Shown here one piece after another: positions 39,202 through 59,100 of a stretch of DNA of 64,000 nucleotides (positions are counted from its first letter, which is position 1; every line of letters begins with the position of its first letter). The notes beneath the pieces were generated by a model. That model was given only the letters and a program-made list of their open reading frames with translations, searched no databases and was not told where the DNA came from. The stretch is from Clostridia bacterium (GTDB lineage Bacteria; Bacillota; Clostridia; Oscillospirales; CAG-272): positions 58,813 to 122,812 of the forward strand of contig JAQXHN010000014.1 in assembly GCA_029007295.1 (NCBI GenBank). The letters run 5' to 3'. The position numbers and the translations under genes are program-made.

Positions 39202-39215
39202 TTTTCGGGAGAAGC

Positions 39216-39575
39216 ATGATGTTCGGAAAAAAGAAAAAAATCGAACCTGCCTCACAGGAAAAGAAAGAAAAGCCGATCCCCTCTTATCTTTGCGAAGATT
39301 ATCCGTATAAAGCGATAGGGCAACGGATTACGGACCTTGATTCTCTAAAGCAAAACGGCGTTGTTTATGAAATTATGTGTCCAGAATGCAAGCTCAGTAT
39401 TCGCTCGCAGGGCTGTAATATTAAGACTGCATACGAAAAAATGATGAATGAAAAGGGATGTGTCGGCTGCGGCGGCAGGGAGCTTATTGTCAAGGAAGTC
39501 TGTATGAGCAAAACAACCGACGATCAATCGGAAGGCTTATCAAGCCGGTGCTTCGATAAAACCGACAATATTTAA
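39216..39575 (+). CDS. hypothetical small protein with CxxC...CxxC zinc-ribbon
   Basis: 119 aa with a Lys-rich N-terminus and CPECK...CVGCGG. The stop is 1 nt before the next gene's ATG. Confidence 0.5.
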   Translation: MMFGKKKKIEPASQEKKEKPIPSYLCEDYPYKAIGQRITDLDSLKQNGVVYEIMCPECKLSIRSQGCNIKTAYEKMMNEKGCVGCGGRELIVKEVCMSKTTDDQSEGLSSRCFDKTDNI

Positions 39576-39576
39576 A

Positions 39577-40719: not shown

Positions 40720-40759
40720 TTGTATTTAATTGAGAATCCGAAGCTCGAAAGGAAGAATA

Positions 40760-41734: not shown

Positions 41735-41735
41735 T

Positions 41736-42398
41736 ATGGAAAATACTCAGAAGAAAATAAAAGTCACTGTCCCCGGGCAGGATAGCTACTTTATGCAGGA
41801 GGCTGTTAAGGTTATCAGAACCAATCTTGAATTTTGCGGACGGGATATCAAGACAATAGCCTTTACAAGCTACGGAGAAAACGAAGGAAAGACCACGGTT
41901 TCCGTCTTTATAGCAAAGAGCCTGGCGGAGCTCGGCAAAAAAGTTTTGTTTGTGGACGCAGATATGAGAAAATCGGTTTTTGCGGTAAGAAACACCGATT
42001 CCACCGATTACTCAGGTCTTAGCGAGGTGCTCAGCGGAATAAAGGCCCTTGACGAATGTATCCGTGAAACGACGCAGGACGGACTTTATATTCTGCAGTC
42101 CGGAAAATACCCACCGAATCCTGTCGAACTGATTAACAGCAAGTATTTTGAAGATTTGATTGTCAACTCTAAACAGATATTTGACTACGTCATTATCGAC
42201 ACGCCTCCCATAGGCTATACCATTGACGCCGCAATCATTTCCGGAATTTCCGACGGTGTTGTTATCATTATAGGTGACCCGAATCTGAAAAGGCGCCAGG
42301 CGAAATCAATGATGACTCAGCTAAGCAAAGCAAACTGTCACATTCTCGGGCTCATCAGAAACAATATAAAAAGACAGTCAAAAAAAAGGTACAGATAA
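41736..42398 (+). CDS. CpsD/CapB/YwqD-family bacterial tyrosine kinase (cytoplasmic subunit) lacking a C-terminal Tyr cluster
   Basis: Walker A GENEGKTT, Walker A' VLFVDADMRK, Walker B YVIIDTPP. The C-terminus ...NNIKRQSKKRYR has a single Tyr. Confidence 0.85.
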   Translation: MENTQKKIKVTVPGQDSYFMQEAVKVIRTNLEFCGRDIKTIAFTSYGENEGKTTVSVFIAKSLAELGKKVLFVDADMRKSVFAVRNTDSTDYSGLSEVLSGIKALDECIRETTQDGLYILQSGKYPPNPVELINSKYFEDLIVNSKQIFDYVIIDTPPIGYTIDAAIISGISDGVVIIIGDPNLKRRQAKSMMTQLSKANCHILGLIRNNIKRQSKKRYR

Positions 42399-42434
42399 AG
42401 GAAACAAAAAATAGAATAAAACGGAGAAAGAACA

Positions 42435-44399
42435 ATGAAGTGGATTGAACGGCTTCTGATCAATATCAGCAAGCGAGTTCACGGAAGGGCTCGAATTGCG
42501 GTGTTGATCCTCGTAGATTTTGCTATTTTTGCATTGATTGACTCTATTTATTATCTCGCTTCACAACATTTATATTCTGATCCTATGCATTCGTCGTTTG
42601 AATTATATTTGAACGGCTCCGTTATACTGCTTTTATGCACTTTTGCTACCAGAATCATTACGAGAATATACAGAAATGTATGGAGATTTCCCAATACCGG
42701 CGCATATCTGAAATTAATCCTTTCAGATGCTGTTGCCACGTTAATTGCAATAATAATAAGCGAGGTTATCGGCAAATACGCAGGAATATGGCATTTTGTT
42801 ACGGTAATTTCTCTCTCATTGCTTTTGACCCTGATATCAAGATTTATATACCGCATTTTATACAAGAAGCTATATAAGACCGAGAATATGGGAGAAGAAA
42901 CCGACCGAAAGCTGACAAATGTGGCGATTGTCGGTGCGGGACAGCTCGGCGTATATCTTGCGAAGGAAATAAGCAACGATTACACGCTCGGATATAAAGT
43001 TTGCTGCTTTATAGATATCGATAACGAAAAGACCGGCGGTTATATTTCCGGTATCAAGATCGAGAATTCCGGCGAAATGCAAAAAATAGTCAGTCGATAT
43101 TCGATAGAAAAATTTATTATAGCAATAGATAAAATATCTAATCAGGCGCTGACAAATCTCTATAATCGATGTAATTCCTTCGGATGCGACGTAAAAATTT
43201 TCGACGCTCCGTTCAGAAAAGAAAATGAGTACGAAAAAACGAACACAAAAAAAGTCATACGCGATTTTACAATAGAGGATTTGCTTTTCCGCGATCAGGT
43301 AAAACTGCTTGAAAAAGATGTAATTGACTATTATTCCGGCAAAACGGTGATGATTACCGGGGGCGGTGGCTCTATCGGAAGCGAAATATGCAGACAGATT
43401 GCAAAATGCAATCCGAAAAGGATAATAATATTCGATATTTACGAAAACAACGCATATGATATTCAGCAGGAGCTTACGCTGAAATATAACGATAAGCTTG
43501 ATCTGCGAGTTGAAATCGGCTCGGTTAGAGATTACGACAGATTGAGCGCTGTTTTTGATTATTACAGACCGGAAATAGTGTTTCATGCCGCAGCGCATAA
43601 GCACGTGCCCCTGATGGAGCACTGCGTATGCGAGGCTATTAAGAACAATGTGCTTGGTACATACAATACCGTAAATGTCGCAGAAAAATATGAGGTTGAA
43701 AAATTCATAATGATTTCTACCGACAAGGCGGTGAATCCTACTAACGTTATGGGAGCCTCCAAACGGATATGCGAGATGATTGTCCGTTCGCATTCCGATT
43801 CAAGGACATGCTTTTCCGCTGTCAGGTTCGGGAACGTATTAGGCTCGAACGGCTCGGTCATCCCGTTATTCAGAAGACAAATCGAAGCCGGCGGTCCGGT
43901 TACAATTACCGATAAGAGAATTATTCGATACTTTATGACAATTCCGGAGGCAAGTCAGCTTGTGCTGACGGCGGGCAGTATGGCAAAGTCCGACGAGCTG
44001 TTTGTGCTTGATATGGGCAATCCCGTTAAGATTTACGATTTATGCGTTAATATGATCCGTCTTATGGGATATGAGCCCGATAAGGATATAGAGATAAGGG
44101 AAATTGGGCTGAGACCCGGCGAAAAGCTTTACGAGGAGCTTTTGGTTCAGAGCAAGAATTTGTCAAAAACCGATAATGACAGAATCTTTATCGAGCATGA
44201 GGCTCCCGTTGACACAGTCGCTATGGCGGAAAATCTGAACAAGCTGTTCCTTGCGGTTGAAAATAACAAGAATACTCTTGATATGAGTGAAATATACGAT
44301 ACGATACGGTCGGTGGTTCCTACCTTCCGCAGTCCGGACTATGTAAATAAAAACGCACTGGACTCAATGGAAATGAAGCTTGTAAACAGCGGCATTTAA
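42435..44399 (+). CDS. capD: membrane-bound polysaccharide biosynthesis protein CapD/PglF/WbpM-type (UDP-GlcNAc 4,6-dehydratase family)
   Basis: 4 N-terminal TM helices, two Rossmann regions (VGAGQLG; ITGGGGSIGSE), and an SDR catalytic region. Confidence 0.88.
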   Translation: MKWIERLLINISKRVHGRARIAVLILVDFAIFALIDSIYYLASQHLYSDPMHSSFELYLNGSVILLLCTFATRIITRIYRNVWRFPNTGAYLKLILSDAVATLIAIIISEVIGKYAGIWHFVTVISLSLLLTLISRFIYRILYKKLYKTENMGEETDRKLTNVAIVGAGQLGVYLAKEISNDYTLGYKVCCFIDIDNEKTGGYISGIKIENSGEMQKIVSRYSIEKFIIAIDKISNQALTNLYNRCNSFGCDVKIFDAPFRKENEYEKTNTKKVIRDFTIEDLLFRDQVKLLEKDVIDYYSGKTVMITGGGGSIGSEICRQIAKCNPKRIIIFDIYENNAYDIQQELTLKYNDKLDLRVEIGSVRDYDRLSAVFDYYRPEIVFHAAAHKHVPLMEHCVCEAIKNNVLGTYNTVNVAEKYEVEKFIMISTDKAVNPTNVMGASKRICEMIVRSHSDSRTCFSAVRFGNVLGSNGSVIPLFRRQIEAGGPVTITDKRIIRYFMTIPEASQLVLTAGSMAKSDELFVLDMGNPVKIYDLCVNMIRLMGYEPDKDIEIREIGLRPGEKLYEELLVQSKNLSKTDNDRIFIEHEAPVDTVAMAENLNKLFLAVENNKNTLDMSEIYDTIRSVVPTFRSPDYVNKNALDSMEMKLVNSGI

Positions 44400-44432: not shown

Positions 44433-46133
44433 ATGAATAAAAAGAGCATTGTTTTCTTTCTTTGTATTACCGCATTGTTTCTTATTTGTCAGTTTACCAT
44501 TTGTGCGGAAGATACCTTCGTCAAAATCGGAAGTGTAATGTTAACCGAAACAACAAACGATGTTTTCGGGGACGGCAGTGCGTCTTATAATCGTGAAAGC
44601 AACGTACTTACCTTAAACGGTTATAGGAGCAACGGAGCAGTATATCCTTTTGACGGCGATAAGGGTGCGGCTATTTATTCTAACGGCGACATTACCCTAA
44701 GGCTTACGGGTGAAAACACGGTTGAGAACGATATCCCCACCTCGGCTTCTTTTGCGATTTATATTGACGGCAGTCTTACAATAGACGGTGACGGAATATT
44801 GAACGCTTCATCATTGCAAGCTGTTACGGAATCCTGCGGGATATACGCAAGTAAGGGCATTATTGTACGTTCGGGCACGGTTAGTGCCTGTTCTGCAGAT
44901 ATACCGTCGGAAATAAGCAACGGAAAAAGTGCCGGAATAATCGGCAATTCAGGTATTACCGTTAAGGGAGGAATACTCAGCGGTATCGGCGGAGAAGCTC
45001 CGTTTCGCAGCTACGGCGTTGTAGCGGATACGGTTAGAGTAAGCGGCGGAAGACTTTACGGAGAGGCAAAAAAATCAGAGTTCTCCATAGGTATTCGCTC
45101 GGACGGCTCAATTGAGTTAACCGACGGAGAAATATACGGTATCGGCGCAGATGCGTCGGATAACAGCTACGGAATTCATATAACCGAAACAGACGCAAAA
45201 TTAACGGTGGACGGCGGAAAAGCCGAATGCCGAGGCGGCAAGGACGCCTTAATAACTTCCAGCGGAATACGCATGGCGGGCGTAACGGACGGCGTTTATT
45301 TGACCGGGGGCGCAGTGCTGTGCAGCGGAGACACTTACGGGTTTGACGGGGCTAAGGGTCCATATCTTTCAAGACGGGGAAAAATCACCGCAATAGGCGG
45401 CGTTCAGGCGTATTCGACAGCGATGATATTTTCACACATGCCTCCGACGTTTCTAAATCCGAATTATGAAATAACGGTAGGCTCTAACGCCGAAAACAGC
45501 GTAAAGCTTACAAATTCTTCCGATATTTCTTTTAAAAGCAAATATATTGATATTACCTGCGCTGTGATATTTGCCGACGTCCCCGAGGACGCATGGTATG
45601 CAAAGTCGGTAAAATACTGCAGTGATAAATCCTACATGAACGGTACCGGCGAAACAGAGTTTTCCCCCTCGTCGCCTCTGACCAGAGCCATGCTTGTTCA
45701 GATACTCGCAAAGATAGAGGGGGCGGATTTGTCCGAGTACAAAGATGTTTCTTCATTTGACGACGTTTTACCGGGACGATGGTACTCGTCGGCAGTAGAG
45801 TGGGCATATCGAAACAAAATTACCGAGGGCGTCGGAAATAATTTGTTTTCGCCGAGCTCAAACGTTTCAAGAGAGCAGACGGCGGTATTCCTTCGTGCTT
45901 ATGCCCAAAGGCGGGGAACGGATATAGAAAGAACAGCGGATATTTCAAATTATCCGGACGCTTCGGAGGTTCATTCATGGGCGTTTGACGCAATGGCGTG
46001 GGCTGTCGGAAACGGACTTATCTCCGGTGTAAAATCAGGGGATACAGTAACACTGTCGCCGCTTAATCCGTCAAGCCGAGCCATGGTATCGGTAATTATA
46101 ATGAATTTCGACAGTATGTTAAAGCGCAGATAA
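44433..46133 (+). CDS. SLH-anchored surface protein with beta-helix-like repeat region
   Basis: Signal peptide, then about 8 repeats of about 28 aa (..GI.s.G.I.v.GG.l...). Three C-terminal SLH repeats (FADVPEDAWYAKSV, FDDVLPGRWYSSAV, YPDASEVHSWAFDAM). Confidence 0.75.
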   Translation: MNKKSIVFFLCITALFLICQFTICAEDTFVKIGSVMLTETTNDVFGDGSASYNRESNVLTLNGYRSNGAVYPFDGDKGAAIYSNGDITLRLTGENTVENDIPTSASFAIYIDGSLTIDGDGILNASSLQAVTESCGIYASKGIIVRSGTVSACSADIPSEISNGKSAGIIGNSGITVKGGILSGIGGEAPFRSYGVVADTVRVSGGRLYGEAKKSEFSIGIRSDGSIELTDGEIYGIGADASDNSYGIHITETDAKLTVDGGKAECRGGKDALITSSGIRMAGVTDGVYLTGGAVLCSGDTYGFDGAKGPYLSRRGKITAIGGVQAYSTAMIFSHMPPTFLNPNYEITVGSNAENSVKLTNSSDISFKSKYIDITCAVIFADVPEDAWYAKSVKYCSDKSYMNGTGETEFSPSSPLTRAMLVQILAKIEGADLSEYKDVSSFDDVLPGRWYSSAVEWAYRNKITEGVGNNLFSPSSNVSREQTAVFLRAYAQRRGTDIERTADISNYPDASEVHSWAFDAMAWAVGNGLISGVKSGDTVTLSPLNPSSRAMVSVIIMNFDSMLKRR

Positions 46134-46138
46134 ATAAT

Positions 46139-46181
46139 AAAACAGCAACCGTTACAGTCTTTATCGGTTGCTGTTTTTTTG
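46139..46181. terminator. bidirectional intrinsic terminator
   Basis: AACAGCAACCG-13 nt-CGGTTGCTGTT followed by TTTTT, with an A-rich 5' flank. Between convergent operons. Confidence 0.8.
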
Positions 46182-46221
46182 TGTGAATTTGTCGGGGAGG
46201 GCCGATTTTCGGTCGCCTCTG

Positions 46222-47418
46222 TTAACCTAAATTATAATCCGCCGCAAGCTTTGCAAAAAGAGGCAGGGAGTTTTCAATAGTTTTTGTTTCTACGCAGAAA
46301 GCAATCCTTACATAACCGGGACAGCGGAATGAATCCGTCGGAACAATAAGCAAATCATACTTTCTTGCGCTCAGGCAAAATTCGGTTGCATTTTCTATCG
46401 GAGACTTCATCAAAAGGTAGAACGTACCGCCCGGGCGTATACAGTCAAATCCCATTTCAACAAGTGAATTGTACAGTAAATCCCTGTTTCTTTCATATAC
46501 GGACATATCTGCCGTTTGCCCGTCGCATATTGAAACGACCTTTTGGAAAAGCGAAGGAGCATTAACAAAGCCCAGCATCCTTCCGGCACCGCAGACGGCG
46601 GCATAAACGTCATCGTGACCGCAAACCCTTTCGGGAACATAAATGTAACCGATACGCTCGCCCGGAATGGAAAGAGATTTGCTGTATGAATAGCAAACGA
46701 TAGTGTTGTCATAAAAATCGGGAACCCAGGGCGCACGTTTTCCGTCGAATACTATTTCACGGTACGGCTCGTCGTTAATCAAAAAAATCGGATGCCCGAT
46801 TTCCTCGGATTTCTTTCTCAACAGCTCGGAGAGCCTTGCAATAACCGCACCGTCGTAAACAACGCCGGAGGGATTATTGGGTGAATTAATTACAATGCCC
46901 TTTGTATTAATGTTGATTGCTTTTTCGATAGCTTCAAAATCAGGCATAAAATCCTTATAATCGGGTTGGCAAATAACCGCCTTTGCTCCTGCGTTTTGGA
47001 GGAAAACTTCATATTCGCTGAAAAACGGAGCCAAAAGTATAAATTCATCATCGGGCACGGTCAGCGCCTTGAAGGTGATGGTCAATGCCGCCGCCGCACC
47101 TACCGTAAAATATAAATCGTCCGGGGAAACATTACCGCCGAATCTTCTTTGCAGGGAGTCGGCAAGACGCTTTCTGTTGTCGTAGGCTCCCTGAGCGCTG
47201 GTATATGCATGAATGCTGTCGGACAATTCGCCCGAAAGAATATCTCTTACGGTGTCGTTAACAGACCTCGGAGGAGCAACGCTCGGATTTCCGAGCGAGT
47301 AATCGTAAACCTTATCGCTGCCCACCTGCGCTTTACGTTTATTTCCGTACTCAAAGGTTTCACGCATAATATTTCTCGTCCTGCCGTGTGCAAGAACATT
47401 TTCCGGAAGCTTAACCAT
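46222..47418 (-). CDS. class I/II pyridoxal-phosphate-dependent aminotransferase
   Basis: 398 aa with INSPNNPSG and YSYSKSLSIPGERIG (PLP-lysine) motifs. Last gene of the T-box operon. Confidence 0.88.
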   Translation of the reverse strand: MVKLPENVLAHGRTRNIMRETFEYGNKRKAQVGSDKVYDYSLGNPSVAPPRSVNDTVRDILSGELSDSIHAYTSAQGAYDNRKRLADSLQRRFGGNVSPDDLYFTVGAAAALTITFKALTVPDDEFILLAPFFSEYEVFLQNAGAKAVICQPDYKDFMPDFEAIEKAININTKGIVINSPNNPSGVVYDGAVIARLSELLRKKSEEIGHPIFLINDEPYREIVFDGKRAPWVPDFYDNTIVCYSYSKSLSIPGERIGYIYVPERVCGHDDVYAAVCGAGRMLGFVNAPSLFQKVVSICDGQTADMSVYERNRDLLYNSLVEMGFDCIRPGGTFYLLMKSPIENATEFCLSARKYDLLIVPTDSFRCPGYVRIAFCVETKTIENSLPLFAKLAADYNLG

Positions 47419-47434
47419 TTAAAAAATCTCCTTA

Positions 47435-47869
47435 TCAAATAATATCGAGGTCATGTTCCGATACTAAATCATAACCGTTACGGAATAACAAATTATCTAT
47501 TTCTTCGGAATTATCTGTTTTGAGAATCATATATGCGTCTCTTGTTTTTCTCGAATACAGCGAATACATATAGCTAAGGCCGACGCCTGCCTCGGACAGA
47601 ATACACAGAAGCGACGAAAGCGCCCCCGCAACATCGGGAACGGATACTGCGGTAACATGATTTACCTTGGCAACACAGCCTGCATTTTTTAAAGCGTCCA
47701 AAGCCTTATTCACATCGGAGCAGATAATCCGTAAAATACCGAAATCAAGTGAATCCGCAACTGATATGGCTCTGATATCAATACCGCTGTCTGCGAGAAT
47801 TTTCATAACCTTTGCTATTTTGCCGGGCTTGTTTTCGGCAAAAACCGAAATTTGTCTTATCTTAACCAT
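47435..47869 (-). CDS. ACT-domain (amino-acid-binding) protein
   Basis: 144 aa with two ACT-like halves (ISVFAENKPGKIAKVMKILADSGIDI..). Commonly encoded next to PaaK-type ligases. Confidence 0.75.
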   Translation of the reverse strand: MVKIRQISVFAENKPGKIAKVMKILADSGIDIRAISVADSLDFGILRIICSDVNKALDALKNAGCVAKVNHVTAVSVPDVAGALSSLLCILSEAGVGLSYMYSLYSRKTRDAYMILKTDNSEEIDNLLFRNGYDLVSEHDLDII

Positions 47870-47881
47870 ATTTCCTCCTCA

Positions 47882-49192
47882 TCAGCTGTAAAGCTTTCTT
47901 TTATCAATCACTCTTACCGCCTTGCCCTCCGAACGGGGAATGGAGTTTGGCTCCAGCAGAGTAACCTTGGCAACGATACCCAGTAAGGATTTCAGCGCTT
48001 CGCTGACGTTGCGGCTTATTGTTTCAAGATCGCCTATGGTTTCAAACGAAGTTTCCGGCGGCAATTCAACCTTTACCTCGCAGGTATCCGAATTATCCAC
48101 TCTGTCGACTACAATTTGATATGCGGTGTAGAAGCCCCGTTCAACCAAAACGGTTTCTATCTGGCTCGGAAATACGTTTACTCCTCTTATAATCAGCATA
48201 TCGTCGGTTCTTCCCATAGGCTTTGTCATGCGGAGGAAGGTTCTGCCGCATGTGCATTTCTCCTTGGTGATTTTACCTATATCTCTTGTCCTGTAACGGA
48301 TAACGGGGAACGCTTTTTTTGTCAGCGAGGTGAATACCAATTCTCCTGTCTCGCCCTCCGGCAGTACCTTTCCTGTGTCGGGGTCTATTACCTCGACGAT
48401 AAAGTGATCCTCGTTTACATGCATACCGCACTGGTATTTACATTCGTATGAGACGCCCGGACCCATAACCTCGGTCAGACCGTAAATGTCGTATGCTTTA
48501 ATTCCGAGCATTTCCTCGATTTTACGGCGCATCTCCTCGGTCCACGGCTCGGCTCCGAAAATTCCCGCCTTCAACGAGATATCTTCTTTTCTAACGCCCA
48601 TACTCTGCATAGTCTCGGCAAGATGCATTGCATATGAGGGGGTCGAGCACAGAACGGTGGAGCCGAAATCCTTAAAAATAGTGACTTGCCGTTGCGTGTT
48701 ACCGCTTGAAACGGGAATAGCGGTGCTTCCGAGCTTTTCGGAGCCGTTATACAGGCCGAATCCGCCCGTAAACAAACCGAAGCCGTACGATACGTGAACC
48801 ATGTCGTTTTTATCGGCGCCTGCCGCCGCCAAAGCCCGCGCGCAAATCTCAGACCAAATATCAATATCATCCTTTGTGTAACCGACGACAATCTGTTTTC
48901 CGGTTGTACCGCTGGAGGCGTGTAAACGTATAACCTCCTCCATCGGAACCGCAAACATTCCGTAGGGATAGGTGTCTCGCAGATCCGCCTTCACCGTGAA
49001 CGGCAGCTTATGTAAATCCTCAATGCCTTTTATATCCTCGGGAGATATTCCCTTTTCATCCATTCTTCTTCTGTAAAGCTCTACGTTGTCATAGACGTGT
49101 TTTATCTGCTGACAAAGAAGAGTGCTTTGCAATATGGATAATTCTTCACGGGGCATGGTTTCGGCTTTTTCGTTAAAGTATCTCATATTCAA
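47882..49192 (-). CDS. paaK: phenylacetate--CoA ligase family protein (PaaK-type)
   Basis: LPFTVKADLRDTYPYGMFAVP and HASSGTTGK motifs; 436 aa. Confidence 0.88.
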   Translation of the reverse strand: MNMRYFNEKAETMPREELSILQSTLLCQQIKHVYDNVELYRRRMDEKGISPEDIKGIEDLHKLPFTVKADLRDTYPYGMFAVPMEEVIRLHASSGTTGKQIVVGYTKDDIDIWSEICARALAAAGADKNDMVHVSYGFGLFTGGFGLYNGSEKLGSTAIPVSSGNTQRQVTIFKDFGSTVLCSTPSYAMHLAETMQSMGVRKEDISLKAGIFGAEPWTEEMRRKIEEMLGIKAYDIYGLTEVMGPGVSYECKYQCGMHVNEDHFIVEVIDPDTGKVLPEGETGELVFTSLTKKAFPVIRYRTRDIGKITKEKCTCGRTFLRMTKPMGRTDDMLIIRGVNVFPSQIETVLVERGFYTAYQIVVDRVDNSDTCEVKVELPPETSFETIGDLETISRNVSEALKSLLGIVAKVTLLEPNSIPRSEGKAVRVIDKRKLYS

Positions 49193-49200
49193 ACCCTCAA

Positions 49201-49776
49201 TTAATGATTTTTTCCTAACAGAAACGCCTTTTTATTCAATTCGACAAACTTAGGAGGTACGCATTTTTCAATTGCTTCAAGCCATGCGCTTTCCGGGATA
49301 TCAAAATATTTTGAAAGAACGCCCATCAAAACAATGTTAACGGCTTTTTGCGAGCCTGCCTCAGTCGCAATGGCAAGAGCGTCCAAACCGTCGACGGATA
49401 TTTGCTTAGCCTTGATTTTTTCGAGAAGCTTCTCCGGATATTTTGCGGCGCCGGTAATAACGGTAATCGGATTAATTTCCTGAGTGTTGACAATAATCGT
49501 ACCGCCCTCCTTTAAATATTCGGTATATCTTGCGGCCTCTAAAAGCTCAAATGAAACTATCATATCCGCACAGCCCTTATCCGTTATGGGGGAATAAACC
49601 TTATCGCCGAATCTGACATAGGTTACAACAGAGCCGCCTCTCTGACTCATACCGTGAACCTCAGAAACCTTAACGTCATAGTTTTCGGCTAACAGCACGG
49701 AGCCCAAAAGCTTGCTCGCCAAAAGCGAGCCCTGACCTCCTACGCCTACAATCATTATATCCTTAGTTGTGTTCAT
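49201..49776 (-). CDS. iorB: indolepyruvate:ferredoxin oxidoreductase subunit beta
   Basis: IMIVGVGGQGSLLASKLLG...SEVHGMSQRGGSV is the gamma-like domain typical of IorB. Confidence 0.88.
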   Translation of the reverse strand: MNTTKDIMIVGVGGQGSLLASKLLGSVLLAENYDVKVSEVHGMSQRGGSVVTYVRFGDKVYSPITDKGCADMIVSFELLEAARYTEYLKEGGTIIVNTQEINPITVITGAAKYPEKLLEKIKAKQISVDGLDALAIATEAGSQKAVNIVLMGVLSKYFDIPESAWLEAIEKCVPPKFVELNKKAFLLGKNH

Positions 49777-51515
49777 TATTTTTCATCCTTTCCGCCGAAG
49801 GCACCGAATTTGCATAGCTGCTCGCAGACGCCGCAGCCTACGCATTGGGTAGGATCAACGGATACTTTTTTGTTGTCCGCAATATACAGCGCAGGGCAAC
49901 CGAGCTTCATACAAGCATGGCAGGCTTTGCATTTTTCGCTGTCAACGGAAAGCGAAGGCTTGGTTTTAACATATTTTAAGAGAACGCACGGACGGCGCGA
50001 TATAATGACCGAGGCCTCCTCTGCCGCCAGCTCTTCTTTGATCGCTTTATCGCACTCGGAAATGTTATACGGGTCTACAACCCTGACCCTTTTAATACCG
50101 ATTGCGCGGCAAAGCGCTTCAAGGTCTATTTTGGCTGCGGGATCGCCCTTCAGATTCATACCGGTTGTCGGGTTGTGCTGATGGCCTGTCATACCGGTTA
50201 TGGAGTTGTCGAGAATTATAACCGTGCCGTGAGTATCGTTATATGTCATGTTTACAAGCCCCGTAATACCGGAGTGCATAAACGTCGAGTCGCCGATAAC
50301 ACATACGCTCTTTTGCTCCGCTTCTTTTCCGAGAGCCTTGTTATATCCGTGAAGTCCCGATACGGAAGCGCCCATACATATTACCGTATCTATGGCGTTC
50401 AGCGGCGGCTGTGCTCCTAACGTATAGCAGCCTATGTCGCCGAATACGGTGATTTTATTTTTCGCCAAGGTGTAGAATAAGCCTCTGTGAGGACAGCCTG
50501 CACACATAACCGGGGGACGGACGGGAAGCTCGTCGTCAAGCGTCTTTCCGTGAGGAATTTCTTTGCCCAAGAGCTCGGCAAGCTTATTCTGCGAAAGCTC
50601 GCCTATCATCGGAATTTTGTCCTTTCCCGTAACGGAAAGACCCAATGAATTGCAATGGGACTCGATAATTCCGTCAAGCTCCTCAACAACGATAAGCTTG
50701 TCGACAGACGCCGCAAAATCAAGTATTTTTCTTTTCGGCATGGGATTGATCATACCGAGCTTCAACACCTTAACGCTGTCGCCGAAAACCTCTTTAACAT
50801 ACTGATACGATGTGCTTGAGGTAATGACTCCGATATTTCCTTCGCCTTCTATTCTGTTTATGTCGCTTGTTTCGGCAAACTCCGTTAAATCCGCAGTCCT
50901 TTTCTCAACGAGCGGATGGCGCTTTTTGGCAAAGCCGGGCATCATTATGTATTTTTGAGGATTTTTCTCATATTTGCGTTCGGGAGCCTCGACTCTGTCC
51001 GACAATTCGCACACGCTTTGCGAATGGGCAACTCTTGTACACATCTTTATGATAACGGGCGTGTCATATTTTTCGGAAATATAATATGCCTTCTTAGCAA
51101 ATTCCAGAGCCTCGCGAGAATCCGAGGGCTCGAGCATGGGAAGCTTTGCGGCAACGGCATAATGACGGGAATCCTGCTCATTCTGCGAAGAGTGCATTCC
51201 GGCGTCATCGGCAACTGCAATAATCATTCCGCCGTTTACGCCGGTATAAGAAATAGTAAAGAGAGGGTCTGCCGCAACATTAAGTCCTACATGCTTCATG
51301 CCGCAGAAGGAACGCTTACCTGCGACGCTTGCACCGAAGGCGCTCTCCATCGCTACCTTTTCGTTCGGTGCCCATTCGGCATAGATTTCACCGTACTTTG
51401 CGGCATATTCCGTTATTTCGGTGCTGGGGGTTCCGGGATAGCTTGACACAAACGAACATCCGGCTTCCCACAGTCCTCGGGCAAGAGCCTCGTTTCCGAG
51501 CAATAATTTTTTCAT
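49776..51515 (-). CDS. iorA: indolepyruvate:ferredoxin oxidoreductase subunit alpha
   Basis: 579 aa with a TPP-binding region (GDSTFMHSG) and two C-terminal 4Fe-4S motifs (CKACHAC..C; CVGCGVCEQLC). Confidence 0.9.
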   Translation of the reverse strand: MKKLLLGNEALARGLWEAGCSFVSSYPGTPSTEITEYAAKYGEIYAEWAPNEKVAMESAFGASVAGKRSFCGMKHVGLNVAADPLFTISYTGVNGGMIIAVADDAGMHSSQNEQDSRHYAVAAKLPMLEPSDSREALEFAKKAYYISEKYDTPVIIKMCTRVAHSQSVCELSDRVEAPERKYEKNPQKYIMMPGFAKKRHPLVEKRTADLTEFAETSDINRIEGEGNIGVITSSTSYQYVKEVFGDSVKVLKLGMINPMPKRKILDFAASVDKLIVVEELDGIIESHCNSLGLSVTGKDKIPMIGELSQNKLAELLGKEIPHGKTLDDELPVRPPVMCAGCPHRGLFYTLAKNKITVFGDIGCYTLGAQPPLNAIDTVICMGASVSGLHGYNKALGKEAEQKSVCVIGDSTFMHSGITGLVNMTYNDTHGTVIILDNSITGMTGHQHNPTTGMNLKGDPAAKIDLEALCRAIGIKRVRVVDPYNISECDKAIKEELAAEEASVIISRRPCVLLKYVKTKPSLSVDSEKCKACHACMKLGCPALYIADNKKVSVDPTQCVGCGVCEQLCKFGAFGGKDEK

Positions 51516-51547
51516 AATTTTGTCTCCGATGATTATTTATTTTGTTA

Positions 51548-53077
51548 TCAGTCTCCGAGAGAGTCCTTTGCATGAACGCTTATTGTAATGTCATAGCATG
51601 AGAATGCATCGTCAACAAGCTTTTCACTCGGCTTTTTGGTTATCAGGCTTACAACAGGTACTATTATCAATCCCGCAAGCATTACAAAAGCGCCGCAGTT
51701 AACGGGCGACTGCAAAAGAGCGGGGAAGGAGCTTCTTGCAAGCATATTGGCAACCATGACTCCCACAGCGAATATAAAGTTTACCCAAACCGCGCAGACG
51801 CTGACCTTCTTCCAGTATAAGCCGTAAATGTAAGGTGCGAGGAACGAGCCTGCCATAGCGCCCCATGAAATGCCCATCATTTGAGCTATATATGTATTTG
51901 CGCTGTTGTACTGGTAAATTGCGATTCCCGCCGATATTGCAACGAACACAACAATGAAAATACGGATTACAAAAACCTGAGTTTTCTGTCCCATATTCTT
52001 CTTTGCCGGCTTTACAACATCCAGCGTCATTGTCGAAGATGAAGTCATAACAAGCGACGAAAGCGTAGACATTGATGCGGAAAGCACCAATACTATAACA
52101 ACCGCAATCAAAATATCGGGCAATTTTTCAAGCATAGTGGGAATAATTGAGTCAAAGCCCTGATTTGCAACCTCCGAATCTGTGAGGAATATTCTTCCGA
52201 AGCCGCCCAGGAAGTAGCAACCGCCGGCAACGATGATTGCAAATACCGTGGACACTATTGTTCCCTTTGTAATTGCCTGCTCATTTTTAATTGCATAAAA
52301 TTTCTGAGTCATCTGCGGCAAGCCCCATGTGCCGAGAGAGGTAAGTATTATTACCGCCAAAAGCGATGTCTTGTCGGGACCGAAGAAGGAGGCGTATACG
52401 CCCGGAACGGAGCTGTCTCCCTTGACGGAAGCAAGCTCGATCAGCGACTGCGTAAAGCCGCCGTTTATATTCAAAACCGCTATAACCACGGCAACGATAC
52501 CGAACAGCATAATTATTCCCTGAATAAAATCATTGACCACCGTCGCCATATAACCGCCGGCAACCACATAAATACAGGTAAGCGCCGCCATAGCTAAAAT
52601 ACACCATGTGTAATTTATGTTAAAAGCCATCTCAAAAAGGCGTGAAAGTCCGTTATAGAGAGACGCGGTGTAGGGGATCATAAATACAAATATTATCAGC
52701 GCCGCACCGAAACGAAGTGATTTTGAGCCGTACCGTGCACCGATGAACTGAGGCATGGTTGCGCTTTTCAGATGCTGAGTCATGATTCTCGTTCTTCTGC
52801 CGAGCACGAGCCATGCGATAAACGAGCCGAGAATAGCGTTTCCTATGCCTATCCATGTAGACGCAATTCCGAACTTCCATCCGAACTGACCGGCATATCC
52901 GATGAAAATAACCGCAGAAAAGTAGGACGTACCGTAGGCGAATGCAGTCATCCATGCGCCTACGTTTCTGCCGCCAAGTACAAATCCGTTAACATTGTCG
53001 TTCTTTTTGCGGCAGGCAAAGCCTACGGCCACCATTACGGCAAAAAAAACTACCAGCAATAAAATTTTGATTACCAT
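51548..53077 (-). CDS. sodium:solute symporter family transporter (substrate unknown)
   Basis: 509 aa, about 13 TM, with FVLGGRNVGAWMTAFAYGTSYFSA in the SSF N-terminal region. Confidence 0.85.
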   Translation of the reverse strand: MVIKILLLVVFFAVMVAVGFACRKKNDNVNGFVLGGRNVGAWMTAFAYGTSYFSAVIFIGYAGQFGWKFGIASTWIGIGNAILGSFIAWLVLGRRTRIMTQHLKSATMPQFIGARYGSKSLRFGAALIIFVFMIPYTASLYNGLSRLFEMAFNINYTWCILAMAALTCIYVVAGGYMATVVNDFIQGIIMLFGIVAVVIAVLNINGGFTQSLIELASVKGDSSVPGVYASFFGPDKTSLLAVIILTSLGTWGLPQMTQKFYAIKNEQAITKGTIVSTVFAIIVAGGCYFLGGFGRIFLTDSEVANQGFDSIIPTMLEKLPDILIAVVIVLVLSASMSTLSSLVMTSSSTMTLDVVKPAKKNMGQKTQVFVIRIFIVVFVAISAGIAIYQYNSANTYIAQMMGISWGAMAGSFLAPYIYGLYWKKVSVCAVWVNFIFAVGVMVANMLARSSFPALLQSPVNCGAFVMLAGLIIVPVVSLITKKPSEKLVDDAFSCYDITISVHAKDSLGD

Positions 53078-53085
53078 TTTTCTCC

Positions 53086-54726
53086 TTAGCCCTTTATTTG
53101 TGAAGTAATAAGATTATCTCCGCCGTAGCGGTGTCTTAAAACCGGCTTCTCTATCTTGCCGGTGGGGTTTCTCGGGATATCGGCCAGAATTATCTTGTGA
53201 GGCCTTTTGTAACGGGGGAGAGCCTGACAGAATTCATTCAGCTCCTCAAGCGTTGCCGTATGTCCGTCCTTTAATTCGATTATGGCGCAGGTGGTTTCTC
53301 CCAATCGGGCGTCCGGTATGCCTATAACGGCGGCGTCCTTTATGGAATTGTTTGTGCGAAGGAAATCCTCGATTTCCACAGGATAAATGTTTTCTCCTCC
53401 GGAAATAACGACGTCCTTTTTTCTGTCCACGAGGTAGATAAAGCCGTCATCGTCCGTTTTTGCCATATCGCCGGTATACAGCCAGCCGTCACGGAGAATT
53501 TCGTCGGTTGCCACGGGATTTTTGTAGTAGCACTTCATTACTCCGTCGCCGAATACGGCGAGCTCGCCCACCTCTCCCGGCTTTACTTCGTTTCCGTTTG
53601 CGTCGACTATCTTTGCTTTCCAGCCGAATCCCGCTTTTCCGATTGCGCCAACCTTGTGAATGTTTTCAACTCCGAGGTGAACGCAGCCCGGGCCGATAGA
53701 TTCGGATAAGCCGTAGTTTGTATCGTATTTGTGGTTTGGAAAATGCTCGAGCCAGCGTTTAATTAAGCTCGGCGGGACGGGCTGCGCGCCTATGTGCATC
53801 AATCTCCACTGTGACAGATTCATTTTACCGATATCCACATTTCCCGAGTCGATCGAGTCGAGAATATCCTGAGCCCACGGCACTAACAGCCATACTATAG
53901 TTGCCCTCTCATCGGAAACGGCTCGCAAAATCCATTCGGGCTTGACGCCTCTCAAAATAACCGCACGGCTGCCGGAAATAAGGCTGCCGAACCAATGCAT
54001 TTTTGCGCCGGTATGATAAAGAGGGGGTATGCAGAGAAATACGTCGTCGTGTGTCTGAGAATGATGTTTTTGCTCCGTTAGGCAGGAGCAAATCAACGCT
54101 TTGTGCGCATGAAGAATCGCCTTGGGTCTTCCTGTCGTGCCGGAAGAAAAATATATTGCAGCGTCGTCGTTTTCGTCAAGTGCGACCGCAGGGGGCTGTG
54201 TCGAGCAGAATAATACATATTCGCCGTACAAATCCGCATAGTCGGGACAGGTCTCTTTGCTTCCGACAAAAAACATGTCCTTAATGCCGGGAAGGGAGGG
54301 CGCAACCGTGTCGATACGCTGAATGAATTCCGGACTGAAAACGAGGCACCTTAAATCGGCAAGCTCGGCGCAATATTTTATTTCGTCGGCAGTGTAACGG
54401 AAATTAAGGGGAACGGCAAGCGCCCCGGTTTTCAGAACTCCGAAATAGCAGGGAAGCCATTCCAGCGAATTCATCATCAGTATGCCGACCTTATCGCCCT
54501 TGCGTATTCCTCTTGTCAGGAGCAGATTAGCAAAGCGATTTGCTTTTTTGTCGAATTCATTCCATGTCATTTCACGCCGATACTTGCCACCGGAGGCGGA
54601 TTCTATAAGATTGAATTCCATCCATGTTTTGGCGTTGTCCATCTCGTTCGACGGATTGATTTCGACAAGGGCGACCTCGTTTGCGTATATTTTAGCGTTT
54701 CTTTCAAGAAAATCAGTAATTACCAT
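53086..54726 (-). CDS. AMP-binding acyl-CoA synthetase (class I adenylate-forming enzyme)
   Basis: IYFSSGTTGRPKA (A3), YTGDMA (A8) and PTGKIEK (A10) motifs. First gene after the T-box leader. Confidence 0.9.
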   Translation of the reverse strand: MVITDFLERNAKIYANEVALVEINPSNEMDNAKTWMEFNLIESASGGKYRREMTWNEFDKKANRFANLLLTRGIRKGDKVGILMMNSLEWLPCYFGVLKTGALAVPLNFRYTADEIKYCAELADLRCLVFSPEFIQRIDTVAPSLPGIKDMFFVGSKETCPDYADLYGEYVLFCSTQPPAVALDENDDAAIYFSSGTTGRPKAILHAHKALICSCLTEQKHHSQTHDDVFLCIPPLYHTGAKMHWFGSLISGSRAVILRGVKPEWILRAVSDERATIVWLLVPWAQDILDSIDSGNVDIGKMNLSQWRLMHIGAQPVPPSLIKRWLEHFPNHKYDTNYGLSESIGPGCVHLGVENIHKVGAIGKAGFGWKAKIVDANGNEVKPGEVGELAVFGDGVMKCYYKNPVATDEILRDGWLYTGDMAKTDDDGFIYLVDRKKDVVISGGENIYPVEIEDFLRTNNSIKDAAVIGIPDARLGETTCAIIELKDGHTATLEELNEFCQALPRYKRPHKIILADIPRNPTGKIEKPVLRHRYGGDNLITSQIKG

Positions 54727-54754
54727 ATTGCCTACCCTTTCTTTTCAGCGAAAA

Positions 54755-55025
54755 CAAAAAAGTCCTCTCGCCTGTTGCGAGAGGACGATTAAATCGCGGT
54801 ACCACCTCTGTTCACATCAGCCTCACGACCGATGTCTTACACGGTACGGCAAAATGCGATACCGTATTCGCTTTAACGGGCGAGCCCGTCGTAGCCTACT
54901 CGAAAATTCTTTGGGTACGAAGCTATCGGAAGGTATTCCCATACTCTCAATACTGTCTTTCACCAAACGACAGCTCTCTTAAATTGATTACGTATGCTAC
55001 TGTTTTCCGGTCAAAGCCTTTCAAT
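54755..55025 (-). promoter_or_regulatory. T-box riboswitch leader (probable Tyr specifier UAC)
   Basis: Minus-strand reading shows stem I with AGAGAG bulge, distal loop GUUUGGUGAAA and a specifier loop GGAAUACC. The T-box sequence GGUGGUACCGCG lies at 54806-54795. The terminator GUCCUCUCGC-AACAG-GCGAGAGGAC-UUUUUUG lies at 54786-54755 and competes with an AGAGG/CCUCU antiterminator. Confidence 0.85.
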
Positions 55026-55031
55026 GCAGAT

Positions 55032-55060
55032 ATTTTATCATGTTAACATGTTTTTGTCAA
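55032..55060 (-). promoter_or_regulatory. sigma-A promoter (TTGACA-17-TAAAAT) of the T-box operon
   Basis: Hexamers and 17-nt spacer read on the minus strand. Confidence 0.6.
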
Positions 55061-55145
55061 TAGTTTTCAAGAAAATGAATTTTTTGTCTTTTTGTGTTTT
55101 AATACGGGTTTTTATGCGTTGTATAAGCATAAATCGGACAGGGCG

Positions 55146-55820
55146 TTAAACCGAGGCAAGCAACACGCTCCGTATTTTATCTTCAATAACCGAATAACCC
55201 TTTTCCGTCGGATGAATACCGTCTGTGCAAATCAATTCTCCGTAATCGTGCCGAAGCAGAAAATCTCCTCTCAAATCCACAAAAATACATCCGTTTTTTC
55301 TTGCGATATTTTCAATTATATGATTGTAATATTCGTGCCACCTTGACAGCATGCTTACGTCGCCGAGCCAAGAGATAATATTGTCCTTTGAAAGTCCTTT
55401 GCTTATCCAGGACAGGTATTTTTCGGAATCAATCGGCACAAGCGAAGCAACGGCAACCCTTGCGCCGTTTGACGACGCTTTTTTTATCGCCTTTGCGTAA
55501 AGATTTTTGAAAAGCTCCGGCGGAGTTTTCGGATTATGCGCGGCTTCGGGCGAATTTGAAACCTCTTGCCAGTTGTAATCGCAGTCATTTCCGCCCATTT
55601 CCAAAAGCACGACGTCTGTTTTTGAAGCCTTGTTTATAAAGCGCTCCTGCAAATTCAGTATTTTCTCGGCGGTCGCCCCCATCCTTGAATGATTTTCGAC
55701 CTCAATTTCATTGTCGGCAAAGGAATCGTATTTACTGCCTTTTCTAAGCCTATAGCGCCTTTGCTCGTCGGAATACACCACTCCCTGTAAAATCGAATCT
55801 CCGAAAATTTGCAATTTCAT
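55146..55820 (-). CDS. SGNH/GDSL-family hydrolase
   Basis: Block I FGDSI, block III GGND, and a C-terminal DGIHP (DxxH) motif. Confidence 0.85.
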   Translation of the reverse strand: MKLQIFGDSILQGVVYSDEQRRYRLRKGSKYDSFADNEIEVENHSRMGATAEKILNLQERFINKASKTDVVLLEMGGNDCDYNWQEVSNSPEAAHNPKTPPELFKNLYAKAIKKASSNGARVAVASLVPIDSEKYLSWISKGLSKDNIISWLGDVSMLSRWHEYYNHIIENIARKNGCIFVDLRGDFLLRHDYGELICTDGIHPTEKGYSVIEDKIRSVLLASV

Positions 55821-56165: not shown

Positions 56166-59100
56166 ATGATGAAAAAATTCAAACGCGTATGCGCTGTGAT
56201 TCTTTGCATCATGATGGTTATTCCTACGATGGCTTTTTCAGCTTCCGCAGCTGAAAGCCCGTGGATTTTCCTCGGCGGCAAATTCTCATCAAACGCTACG
56301 ACAATTATTTTTGACGGTGATAAGGTTCGCGATACCGGATTCACTTTCACGGAAAATGAAAACGGAGGCATAGACGTGCACTCTCCTTCCTATGAAGAGG
56401 CGGCGGGTGTATACGGCGTCAGCTTGCTTTCCAATAAAAATAAAACAACACTTGACAATTTAAGCGTTGTTATTACTCCGGGCGATACGTTTGATGCAAC
56501 CCGCGACAGCTTCGGCTTTTCCGACAGACTGAGCATTATGTTTTCGGAAAATGCAGTTACCGAGCTTTCGAGAAAAGAAGAGGGAACGGGCTCATATATC
56601 GGTCTGTACAATTATGAAATGGTCGGAACAAACGGTATCCGCCATCTTATGCCGAAAGAGGGAAATTCGCTTGTAGTATCGGTAAACAATACCTATGACG
56701 GTTATGACGGACAGATTTTCTCTGATGTAGCTATTGTAAAAGGCGACGGAGAGTTTGAAGACTATAACGATCACCGTCCCGGATACAGATGGGTATTCAC
56801 AGGCGAGACCGTCGGAGATAAGGTTACTTCTGAGTTTCTGCGTGTTGATGTATCGCGCGGACTTGTATTTGAGATAATTCCGGACACAACTCTCGGCTTC
56901 AAGGTTTCGGTTAACGGTAACGAATACTTCAGCGGTAAAAGCATAAAGTTTTTCCCCATTGACGTAGATAATTCCTTTTCTAAAAAGAGAGCCGATATCG
57001 ACCTTAGCAATTTGGTAGGTGTTCAGGGCTATTTGGCTATAGGCTCCTGCGCCGCATTCAAGAACGCTCTCGATTATACGGTTGAAAAAATTAACGGTTA
57101 CGATGCCGCAACCTGGGCAGGAGAAGCTCCTGCGGAGCATACTCATTCCTTCAACGTAACGGAAAAGGAAGTAGAATGTCTCAGCGACGGCATAGAATAT
57201 GTTGAGTGCGAATGCGGTCAGCACTATATCAGGAAAAACACAAAGCAGACCGGTCATATTTGGGCAACTAACAAGGATCCGATATTCCGTGACTGGGGAT
57301 ATTCCTTTACGGACACATATTGGTCTGAAAACATAACAAACACGTTCAGAACGTATACTTTTGTCGAATATCCTACCTGTACCGAAACCGGATTAAATCA
57401 CAAGGTTTGTAGGGTATGCGGAGAATCGGAGGATGATATTCTTCCCGCAAGAAATCATCAGGCCTTTTACATTAAGAAAGATGATAAGCAAAACGGAAAG
57501 AACAAGATATATTATGCAAACCGCTGGGGCGATTGGGAAATCACGACTCCGGCAACGGCAACAACAAAGGGCGTCAAAACAAGAACCTGTTTTATGTGCG
57601 GCGCAACCGAAACTATGGAGTATTCCAAGTGGGATGACCAAGAGGACATAAACGACAAATGGTATGTTTCGGGAGAAACAACTATTTCCCGTTCAAACGG
57701 CAATCTCACCGGTAAAGTAATCTATACAGCGGTTAATACCGACGGCAAGAGAGTTAAGACGGTTGTAGGTGAAGACGGTTCTATTTCTCTTCTTGACGCC
57801 GCCGCTCAGACGGGTGTGCTCGACGCTACTACATCGTACAACAACATTACGAAAATTACATCAAGGAACCAGTCCGATCTTAACGGCTTTTCCGCTACTG
57901 TTCAGATGATTCCGGTAAACGGAAAGTATGCGGATTCCATTAATTTCATATGGACAAACAAATATGACAGTTATAAGTATGCAGGACAGTATTCCGCAGG
58001 TTCATTCTCAAAGTCTCAAGGTTCGGCGATTGAGGATTCCCGTTTCGGATATCTGTGGGACTACTATATTCCGGGAGAAGAATATTCATTTGTTGTTACC
58101 TTGATGGACGGTCTTAATCTTTGGGACCAGTATTTCTACGGCACAATGAACGACAATATTTACGATGTTGCATTCTACAGCAGCATCTGCCGCGGCAATC
58201 TTTGGAATGTTAAGTACAGCGAAACAGGTATTAACCTTGAGACATACGACAACGAAAAGATAGCAATCGACGCTTCAGAGCCTATTTCCGTTCAGACAAA
58301 CTACTGCTACGACGAGGACGAATGCGTTCCGGATATTTTGTCGTTTGATTTAAACGGACTGCGAGTATTCGCATTGGAGATGAACGCCAGCCAGTCATAC
58401 GAAAAGATTTACCACTTCAGCACATGTGGCTTTGCGGCCGGCGCAGGCAGCAAGACCTCATCCTTTAAGCTTATCGACGTTTGCGGTCAAAGGGCGACAG
58501 ACTTTGTTTCCTTTGAAAACACCGAGGACTGCGAGCACGAGTGGGGCGAATATGTTTGGAATACCAAGGTAGTAATCCGAGACGGCAAGTATACCATAAT
58601 CAATGACGAGCCTGATTGCATTACAGAGGGTTCAAAAATTTCGACCTGTTCAAAATGCGAAGCAACAAGAAAGCTGATAATACCCGCTAAAGGCCATGAC
58701 TTCGGCAATGACGATATTATCAAGAGCCCTACCTGTACAAGCGACGGTATCGGAATGCATTATTGCAAGGTATGGTTCCTCTCTGATAAGGGAATCAATA
58801 CTCCCTGCAGCGATATAGAGTACTTCCTCATAAAGAGCAAAGGACATAAATTCGGCGAATGGGAAATTGTTGAAGAGGCAACAGACGACAAAGACGGACT
58901 TAAGAAGAGAACCTGCGAAATATGCTTGGAAGTTGAAGAAGAAAAAATTCCTGCGTTGAATCCCGTAATAGAAAATCCTTTCAAGGATTTACCGAAGGGT
59001 AAATGGTATACAGACCCCGCTCTTTGGTGCTATGCAAAGGGATATTTGACGGGACTTTCGGACACGGTGTTCGGACCCGACAACAAGCTTACAAGAGCGC

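Follow-up and report, generated by a model that had tools for sequence, protein, structure and literature searches.

A T-box leader most likely reading tRNA-Tyr precedes an IorAB and arylacetate-CoA ligase operon, predicted to form aromatic amino acids, in an Oscillospirales bacterium

Promoter, leader and genes of the operon

The window analyzed here is a stretch of 64,000 nt of contig JAQXHN010000014.1 (assembly GCA_029007295.1) from a Clostridia bacterium of the Oscillospirales, and all window coordinates are relative to that stretch. On its minus strand lie seven closely packed genes for two AMP-forming acyl-CoA ligases, a symporter, both subunits of indolepyruvate:ferredoxin oxidoreductase (IOR; IorAB), an ACT-domain-pair protein and an aminotransferase, preceded by a promoter and by a leader RNA of the T-box type that most likely reads tRNA-Tyr. 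The elements of the leader and the genes that follow it are listed below.

55032..55060, minus strand: sigma-70-type promoter TTGACA-17-TAAAAT with extended TG, 11/12 positions matched
54755..55023, minus strand: T-box leader with Stem I, Stem II, IIA/B, Stem III and antiterminator/terminator (RF00230 and fold)
54933..54935, minus strand: specifier codon, most likely UAC (Tyr), from loop comparison, covariation and valS/trpB calibration
54780..54809, minus strand: antiterminator with helix A1 (AGAGG/CCUCU), bulge and helix A2 (GCGAU/AUCGU), from fold and RF00230 alignment
54756..54786, minus strand: intrinsic terminator GUCCUCUCGC-AACAG-GCGAGAGGAC followed by U6, 10-bp stem and 5-nt loop (fold)
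53086..54726, minus strand: ligase 1, FadD-like AMP-forming acyl-CoA ligase, 546 aa (PF00501 and PF13193)
51548..53077, minus strand: sodium:solute symporter (SSF), 509 aa (PF00474)
49776..51515, minus strand: IorA, indolepyruvate (arylpyruvate):ferredoxin oxidoreductase alpha subunit, 579 aa (TIGR03336, 712 bits, cut-off 651)
49201..49776, minus strand: IorB, beta subunit, 191 aa, overlapping iorA by 1 nt (NF005325, 277 bits, cut-off 230)
47882..49192, minus strand: ligase 2, PaaK-like AMP-forming arylacetate-CoA ligase, 436 aa (TIGR02155, 555 bits)
47435..47869, minus strand: stand-alone ACT-domain-pair protein, 144 aa (PF19571 ACT_8; structure 2f06, E 6.5e-23)
46222..47418, minus strand: class-I pyridoxal phosphate (PLP) aminotransferase, 398 aa, last gene of the operon (NF005305, 513 bits, cut-off 376; structure 3ele, E 7e-138)

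The leader was recognized by Rfam cmscan as a T-box (RF00230) at 55023..54778 on the minus strand, with a score of 126.1 bits (gathering score 93, E 1.4e-27); it covers the model over its full length, positions 1-219, and is the sole gathering-level Rfam match within the whole window. The promoter ahead of it ranks top among the promoter-like sites of 45900-55400, and its position is also kept, as TTGAC(A/T)...TA(A/T)A(A/G)T, in the alignment of the regions before the leaders of related loci. Stem I carries an AGAGAG bulge (the AG bulge) and the distal loop UUUGGUGAAAG, both aligned to RF00230 in the cmscan output, and its specifier loop displays an S-turn AGUA/GAA followed by the codon, whose bases are the second to fourth counted from the 3' end of the bulge. 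When Stem I was folded alone by thermodynamics the T-box form was not recovered (z -1.2), and its structure was therefore taken from the covariance model and from comparison.

The T-box sequence GGUGGUACCGCG occupies 54806-54795 on the same strand and is followed by the intrinsic terminator, whose fold has an energy of -19.8 kcal/mol (z -5.9), a stability reached by 0 of 200 shuffled sequences. In the antiterminator, AGAGG at 54809-54805 pairs with CCUCU at 54784-54780 to form helix A1, leaving a 7-nt bulge UGGUACC (54804-54798) which starts with UGGN as in other T-boxes; this fold is weaker, with -7.4 kcal/mol for the segment 54778-54812. Both structures use the 5' arm of the terminator, 54786-54780, and are thus mutually exclusive, so that the antiterminator competes directly with an intrinsic terminator. 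A 166-aa open reading frame (ORF) listed mechanically on the plus strand, at 54482-54982, runs antisense to the leader and to the start of the first ligase gene; it is most likely spurious, as it overlaps a conserved RNA.

The seven ORFs 3' of the leader follow one another with spacings of 8, 32, -1 (the 1-nt overlap), 8, 12 and 16 nt, and no well-scoring internal terminator was found in the operon, where the gaps are <=32 nt. IorA and IorB both pass their equivalog models, and the TPP, POR_N and 4Fe-4S domains are present. Both ligases belong by their domain families to the AMP-forming ANL enzymes. In the case of ligase 1 no NCBIfam model was reached at its cut-off, and among proteins of solved structure it comes closest to FadD13, FadD5, feruloyl-CoA synthetase and 4-coumarate-CoA ligase. 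Ligase 2 stays below the equivalog cut-off of TIGR02155 (555 vs 646 bits); its structure matches are PaaK1/PaaK2 (2y27, E 1e-136, and 2y4o) and 4r1l (1e-119), and judged from these it is clearly of the PaaK structural family, hence the name PaaK-like. The best equivalogs of the symporter are PutP and PanF, each below cut-off. The aminotransferase gene is convergent with a gene for an S-layer homology (SLH) domain protein that ends at 46133.

Phosphate acyltransferase (PF01515), acyl kinase (PF00871) and ADP-forming ligase (PF13607) domains are absent from the seven operon genes, and the set does not correspond to a catabolic oxidative-Stickland cluster. It does hold the gene content of the anabolic pathway of the Methanococcus maripaludis type, that is, IOR, aryl-acid activation and an aminotransferase in one operon.

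The first-pass annotation of this stretch, made from its letters and a list of its ORFs, had placed here the same promoter, the AGAGAG bulge, distal loop and T-box sequence, and the terminator with its alternative antiterminator, and had proposed an Rfam scan as a check; every one of these elements was found where it had been placed, and the scan returned the above-threshold match described. The seven genes, in order and spacing, were likewise as it described them, and its family assignments (acyl-CoA synthetase, symporter, IorA, IorB, PaaK-type ligase, ACT protein and aminotransferase) hold.

The leader-operon unit in Oscillospirales and its specifier codon

Relatives of the operon were collected by an IorA protein scan with one genome per GTDB species, which gave 80 loci (L001-L080). 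These come from Oscillospirales-type gut or rumen metagenome-assembled genomes, their source hosts being largely goat, sheep, deer, buffalo and chicken (gut), and their IorA is 68-74% identical to that of the window; Oscillospirales is the order that includes Ruminococcus. A tblastn search with the seven window proteins found the order ligase-(SSF)-iorA-iorB-paaK-ACT to be a conserved feature of the 80 loci, with the ACT gene after paaK in nearly all of them.

A hidden Markov model (HMM) built from the leaders detected full-length homologous leaders in about 47 of the 80 loci. When 19 T-box leaders of relatives were scanned with Rfam, 18 were above the gathering score, at 95-140 bits, and the remaining one is a second, weaker leader in L019. 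Loci were taken as assessable if the ligase was present with at least 350 nt of upstream sequence (n=57); a T-box lies directly before the ligase in 40 of these, which answers in the affirmative the question, raised by the first-pass annotation, whether T-box and ior/paaK co-occur in related genomes. The T-box is differently placed in L009 (between ligase and iorA, 6674-6993), in L078 (before iorA) and in L003 (before paaK). L003:1-9607 holds two ior clusters facing apart, one of which has the Phe T-box within it, in the gap from iorB to paaK. At L056:3075-3565 the HMM aligns to the leader in two segments (model positions 9-172 and 142-331) about 135 nt apart, which suggests an insertion or a partial duplication within the T-box.

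The orthologous operons without a T-box are the following.

L004, L005, L007, L008, L011, L020, L024, L032, L041, L046, L049, L055, L070, L071, L076, L077

Nine of these leaderless operons were scanned with Rfam and neither a divergent T-box nor another relevant riboswitch was found before them; where measured, the gap 5' of their ligase is only about 80-140 nt, too short for a T-box. L004 has no T-box though its IorA is only 3% distant from that of the T-box-bearing L009.

The aminotransferase at the operon end is non-orthologous in many relatives: theirs is closest to PRK08912 (below cut-off) and only 25-29% identical to that of the window, which is of the PRK06836 type (cf. PDB 3ele), as seen in the comparison with L022:11081-12265, L019:11171-12337 and L027:11078-12244. 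An aminotransferase was therefore recruited to this place more than once, which argues for transamination as a part of the unit. L076 has a PRK06836-type aminotransferase nearby, on the opposite strand.

The first-pass annotation left the specifier unnamed; we read it as UAC (Tyr), at 54935-54933. The specifier loop of the window has 7 nt per side (AACAGUA / GAAUACC), and its 3' side, GAA-UAC-C (54938-54932), is followed by UUCCG (54931-54927), which pairs with CGGAA. In 43 homologous leaders the loop pattern, (G/C/A)AA followed by U(U/A)C and any one base, is invariable, and the loop-closing pair is Watson-Crick in all 43 and covaries between A-U (32 leaders) and G-C (11). Two insertion variants, L010 and L002 (GAA-U-UAC-C), show that the register of the codon follows the helix and not the GAA. 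The same rule, codon plus one base and then helix, could be calibrated on other leaders, where it gives GUC for the one ahead of valS in L027 and UGG for those of trpB in L076 and a TrpB-like gene in L019; it is also the default frame of TBDB. UAC and UUC make up 99% of the known Tyr and Phe T-box specifiers, and a C at the third codon position is a structural rule for known specifiers.

Read in this frame, 22 of the 43 leaders carry UUC (Phe) and 21 carry UAC (Tyr), the latter being the window and 20 loci. The UGGU of the antiterminator bulge would pair with an A73 discriminator, the base which bacterial tRNA-Tyr and tRNA-Phe carry. The window T-box most likely reads tRNA-Tyr, and we consider it very probable that a Tyr-responsive T-box controls this operon.

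UUC and UAC leaders interleave on the similarity trees of IorA and of the ligase, among enzymes that differ by 6-10%. L048 (UUC; leader 4973-5299) groups with L029 (UAC; 4989-5311) and L052 (UAC) at 6-8% protein distance, and L030 (UAC; leader 4987-5336) is nested in a clade of UUC loci. A separation into Phe-type and Tyr-type enzyme lineages was rejected since the two types interleave, and no substrate-specific subfamily could be defined. It looks as if the T-box signal had been respecified repeatedly by a single base with the enzymes unchanged, which would argue that these enzymes accept both phenyl and 4-hydroxyphenyl substrates.

Other T-boxes lie close to some of the related operons. At L080:4329-6927 (also in L021 and L015) a T-box with AUC-A (Ile), scoring 95-98 bits, precedes a gene for a 755-aa HTH_3/Cupin_2/AMP-binding fusion; in L080 this gene sits 74 nt upstream of the orthologous iorA-iorB-paaK-ACT-luxS cluster, and the gap holds a promoter-like site, TTGATT-17-TATAAT, and no terminator. 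Trp T-boxes (GAA-UGG-G) control trpB (L076:1883-3537) and the TrpB-like gene (L019:675-2446) a few kb from the ior operon, with T-box bulges UGGU in L076 and UGGC in L019; their position suggests that functions of aromatic salvage may be clustered here.

Predicted pathway, its direction and the alternatives

In the proposed mechanism transcription would start at the promoter 55060-55032 and would normally end at the leader terminator, 54786-54756. With uncharged tRNA-Tyr(GUA) present, the anticodon would pair with the UAC specifier and the free 3' ACCA end with the UGGU of the bulge; this binding would stabilize the weaker antiterminator and let RNA polymerase enter the operon. The symporter would import the precursor, an arylacetate or possibly the amino acid itself, and the two AMP-forming ligases would convert 4-hydroxyphenylacetate or phenylacetate (perhaps indoleacetate) into CoA thioesters. 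IorAB, with reduced ferredoxin and CO2, would reductively carboxylate the arylacetyl-CoA to the arylpyruvate, from which the aminotransferase would form Tyr or Phe, while the ACT-pair protein probably exerts feedback by binding an amino acid. One guess for the two ligases is a split between phenolic and non-phenolic substrates, made because the closest structures to ligase 1 include FadD13, feruloyl-CoA synthetase and 4-coumarate-CoA ligase.

The explanation as a whole, an attenuating tRNA-Tyr T-box in control of a seven-gene operon making aromatic amino acids from arylacetic acids, is in our judgment quite probable. That the operon is a route from arylacetate to Tyr/Phe is by itself probable, and we infer from the sequence the direction of flux, the substrates of ligases and symporter, and the part played by the ACT protein.

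The anabolic direction is favored because T-boxes switch genes on under starvation for the cognate amino acid, because the ligases are AMP-forming, and because neither a phosphotransacylase (Pta)/kinase pair nor an ADP-forming ligase is present; it is also suggested by the functions of import, activation, carboxylation and transamination sharing one transcript. Clusters for the catabolic use of arylpyruvate oxidoreductases carry a phosphotransacylase and a kinase, or an ADP-forming ligase, and AMP-forming ligases beside IOR have been argued to indicate biosynthesis (PMC13285125). The first-pass annotation had preferred the anabolic reading, which requires an aromatic signal; the leaders of about 40 related genomes, carrying UAC or UUC, lend it support at the level of sequence.

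Comparison with known systems points the same way for some features and sets the operon apart for others. With canonical RF00230 leaders (e.g. B. subtilis tyrS, UAC) the window shares a full-length Stem I with K-turn region, S-turn/specifier loop, AG bulge and distal loop, as well as Stem II, IIA/B, Stem III, the UGGN antiterminator bulge and the competing terminator. It differs from them in the base 3' of the codon, a C and not a purine, and in the genes controlled, which are a 2-oxoacid:ferredoxin oxidoreductase and acyl-CoA ligases rather than an aminoacyl-tRNA synthetase, a shikimate/prephenate enzyme or a lone transporter.

In M. maripaludis it is established by genetics that aryl acids are turned into aromatic amino acids by way of IOR (Porat 2004, as reported in PMC4162585). 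The likeness lies in IorAB working in the reductive, biosynthetic direction, which for the window operon is a prediction only; the methanogen is an archaeon without T-box, whereas the window has a transporter, two AMP-forming ligases, ACT protein and aminotransferase on one tRNA-gated transcript. In Bacteroides a cluster of IOR and an AMP-forming arylacetate-CoA ligase was suggested from the type of ligase to be biosynthetic (PMC13285125, 2026). That cluster also has IorAB beside a PaaK-type AMP-forming ligase and an ACT-pair protein, but its direction of flux was conjectured from the ligase type only, while the window adds a starvation sensor, a second ligase, a symporter and an aminotransferase. 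Bacteroidota are not known to carry T-boxes. Two of the structures matched by window proteins, the ACT-pair protein 2f06 and 4r1l, which was deposited as a phenylacetate-CoA ligase, are from B. thetaiotaomicron.

The same chemistry in reverse, from arylpyruvate over arylacetyl-CoA to arylacetate by a ferredoxin-dependent oxidoreductase, is found in oxidative Stickland clusters; examples are the IOR-kinase cluster of C. difficile and, in Clostridium scatologenes, HpdDEFG together with HpdJ and HpdK (PMC13285125). Those clusters gain ATP through phosphotransacylase and kinase or an ADP-forming ligase and are induced in growth on tyrosine; the window operon, in contrast, has AMP-forming ligases only and would be wired to be turned on by uncharged tRNA-Tyr.

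In the 1960s Allison and co-workers reportedly found that rumen bacteria reductively carboxylate phenylacetate and indoleacetate to Phe and Trp. The overall conversion and the habitat are those of the present proposal, the classical work having given the physiology without genes or regulation. The synthesis of Phe from phenylacetate in the rumen is mentioned as known in PMC7356843. Full-text searches gave no report linking a T-box to IOR or to phenylacetate-CoA ligase, and Wels 2008 does not mention these genes; an earlier record in T-box databases (TBDB, RegPrecise) or in 2008 comparative work is possible. The claim of the first-pass annotation that this is not a described unit can thus be kept for the T-box link but not for the pathway, the idea of which is known from the rumen, M. 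maripaludis and Bacteroides; what appears undescribed is the tRNA-sensing control of the operon.

Several observations weigh against the proposal. The symporter is closer to PutP/PanF than to known monocarboxylate carriers, and the presence of two ligases within one operon is an unexplained point. In three relatives (L080, L021 and L015) an Ile-type T-box is found just upstream of the orthologous ior cluster, and 16 of the 57 assessable orthologous operons have no T-box, its control thus not being universal. As to the codon, the cmscan columns, which assume a 4-bp lower helix, put ACC (Thr) at the specifier position, and 34 of the 43 leaders have a C just after the codon, where a purine is usual. 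No tRNA gene is present in the window for a comparison of its discriminator base with UGGU; those near the operons of relatives, looked at for the same purpose, are for tRNA-Val and unrelated.

Some of these observations would fit an uptake or homeostasis module, in which the symporter imports Tyr/Phe and the enzymes interconvert aromatic or wider (including branched-chain) 2-oxo acids and acyl-CoAs. T-boxes often govern transporters of the cognate amino acid, and a symporter with PutP and PanF as its best matches, both below cut-off, could import an amino acid rather than an arylacetate; the Ile-type T-box of the three relatives would agree with a wider range of substrates, and the flips of the specifier between Phe and Tyr among near-identical enzymes suggest broad specificity. 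However, many of the T-box-controlled orthologous operons lack the symporter and retain the ligases, IorAB and ACT protein, IorA passes the IOR equivalog model, and the promoter-like site of L080 lies between the Ile-controlled gene and iorA, so that the Ile signal may not reach the ior genes. We regard such a module as unlikely.

A catabolic or fermentative operon, in which Tyr/Phe would be transaminated, the arylpyruvate oxidatively decarboxylated by IorAB and the arylacetate released, with the T-box an oddity or acting on the first gene only, corresponds to the usual annotation of IOR and PaaK clusters; 2-oxoacid:ferredoxin oxidoreductases are reversible, and work to which PMC13285125 refers assigns IOR a part in making phenylacetate in B. 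thetaiotaomicron. Control by a T-box, which turns genes on when the cognate tRNA is uncharged, i.e. in starvation, speaks against it, as do the conservation of a Phe/Tyr-specifier leader in about 40 genomes and the enzymes themselves, since no ATP-conserving Pta/kinase pair or ADP-forming ligase is encoded and AMP-forming ligases favor thioester synthesis. Gaps of <=32 nt and no well-scoring internal terminator count against it as well. This alternative seems to us quite improbable.

Least probable of all, and rejected here, is a specifier one base later, which would make the operon Thr/Ser-responsive: ACC in the window falls into the codon columns of the model, the shifted reading gives only synonymous Ser (UCC/UCA/UCG) or Thr (ACC/ACA) codons across relatives and the base after UAC/UUC is mostly C, but the covarying closing pair of all 43 leaders leaves exactly codon plus 1 nt, the insertions of L010 and L002 keep UAC in helix register, the valS and trpB leaders of the same lineage follow the UAC-type rule, the third position would vary among C, A and G where it is always C in the UAC/UUC frame, and a Ser or Thr signal would be metabolically senseless for IOR, PaaK and aminotransferase.

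Genomic context and meaning of the operon

The operon is flanked by genes for large SLH-domain proteins, and the other features of the window include the following.

44433-46133, plus strand: large SLH-domain protein flanking the operon
56166-59537, plus strand: large SLH-domain protein flanking the operon
38227-44399, plus strand: polysaccharide-synthesis cluster
32746-34157, plus strand: DpaA-N-domain protein followed by a flavoprotein, read as dipicolinate synthase dpaAB

Other window genes include those for a Mur ligase and for ABC exporters. This content is consistent with a spore-forming Firmicute bearing an S-layer. Among 20 annotated neighboring genes of the window none is an aro, phe or tyr gene, and the remaining genes offer no other pointer to aromatic metabolism.

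In the flanks of the related operons, TPP riboswitches were detected at L004:15546-15660 and L010:1131-1223, both on the minus strand, and a Gut-1 RNA at L046:14992-15066 on the plus strand (50.7 bits vs a gathering score of 50). Several of the relatives scanned have a gene for tRNA-Val 5' of the operon, at L033:2901-2977, L035:2271-2347, L060:780-856, L062:3211-3287 and L075:2090-2166. Immediately 5' of the operon of L022 (3402-5024) is a gene for a large serine recombinase (CcrB/XisF-like), which may belong to a mobile element inserted near a tRNA gene; the locus itself has no tRNA gene.

In gut anaerobes IOR/PaaK clusters are as a rule taken to make phenylacetate, 4-hydroxyphenylacetate and indoleacetate, which are linked to phenylacetylglutamine, p-cresol and host signaling; 4-hydroxyphenylacetate and phenylacetate are fermentation products and the precursors of p-cresol and phenylacetylglutamine. 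A Tyr/Phe T-box before such a cluster is direct regulatory evidence for the opposite, biosynthetic direction in a large group of Oscillospirales, and it orients a set of enzymes for which, in bacteria, the direction had been a matter of conjecture. In the repeated UUC/UAC flips nature offers a clear case of a T-box being respecified by one base.

The wider proposition is that the operons of IOR and arylacetate-CoA ligase in gut and rumen Oscillospirales are a dedicated, tRNA-gated salvage of 4-hydroxyphenylacetate/phenylacetate to Tyr/Phe, the signal being retuned between UUC and UAC and perhaps to Ile in one subclade; we hold this to be evenly balanced between true and false. If it is true, the operons would mark their taxa as net sinks and not sources of arylacetate, possibly with an incomplete shikimate or prephenate pathway, and would supply the long-missing genes of the classical reductive-carboxylation pathway of the rumen, naming candidates for a route known physiologically since the 1960s. 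The elements are known, and through their combination both the old physiological finding and the present question about phenylacetate and 4-hydroxyphenylacetate in the gut become directly testable.

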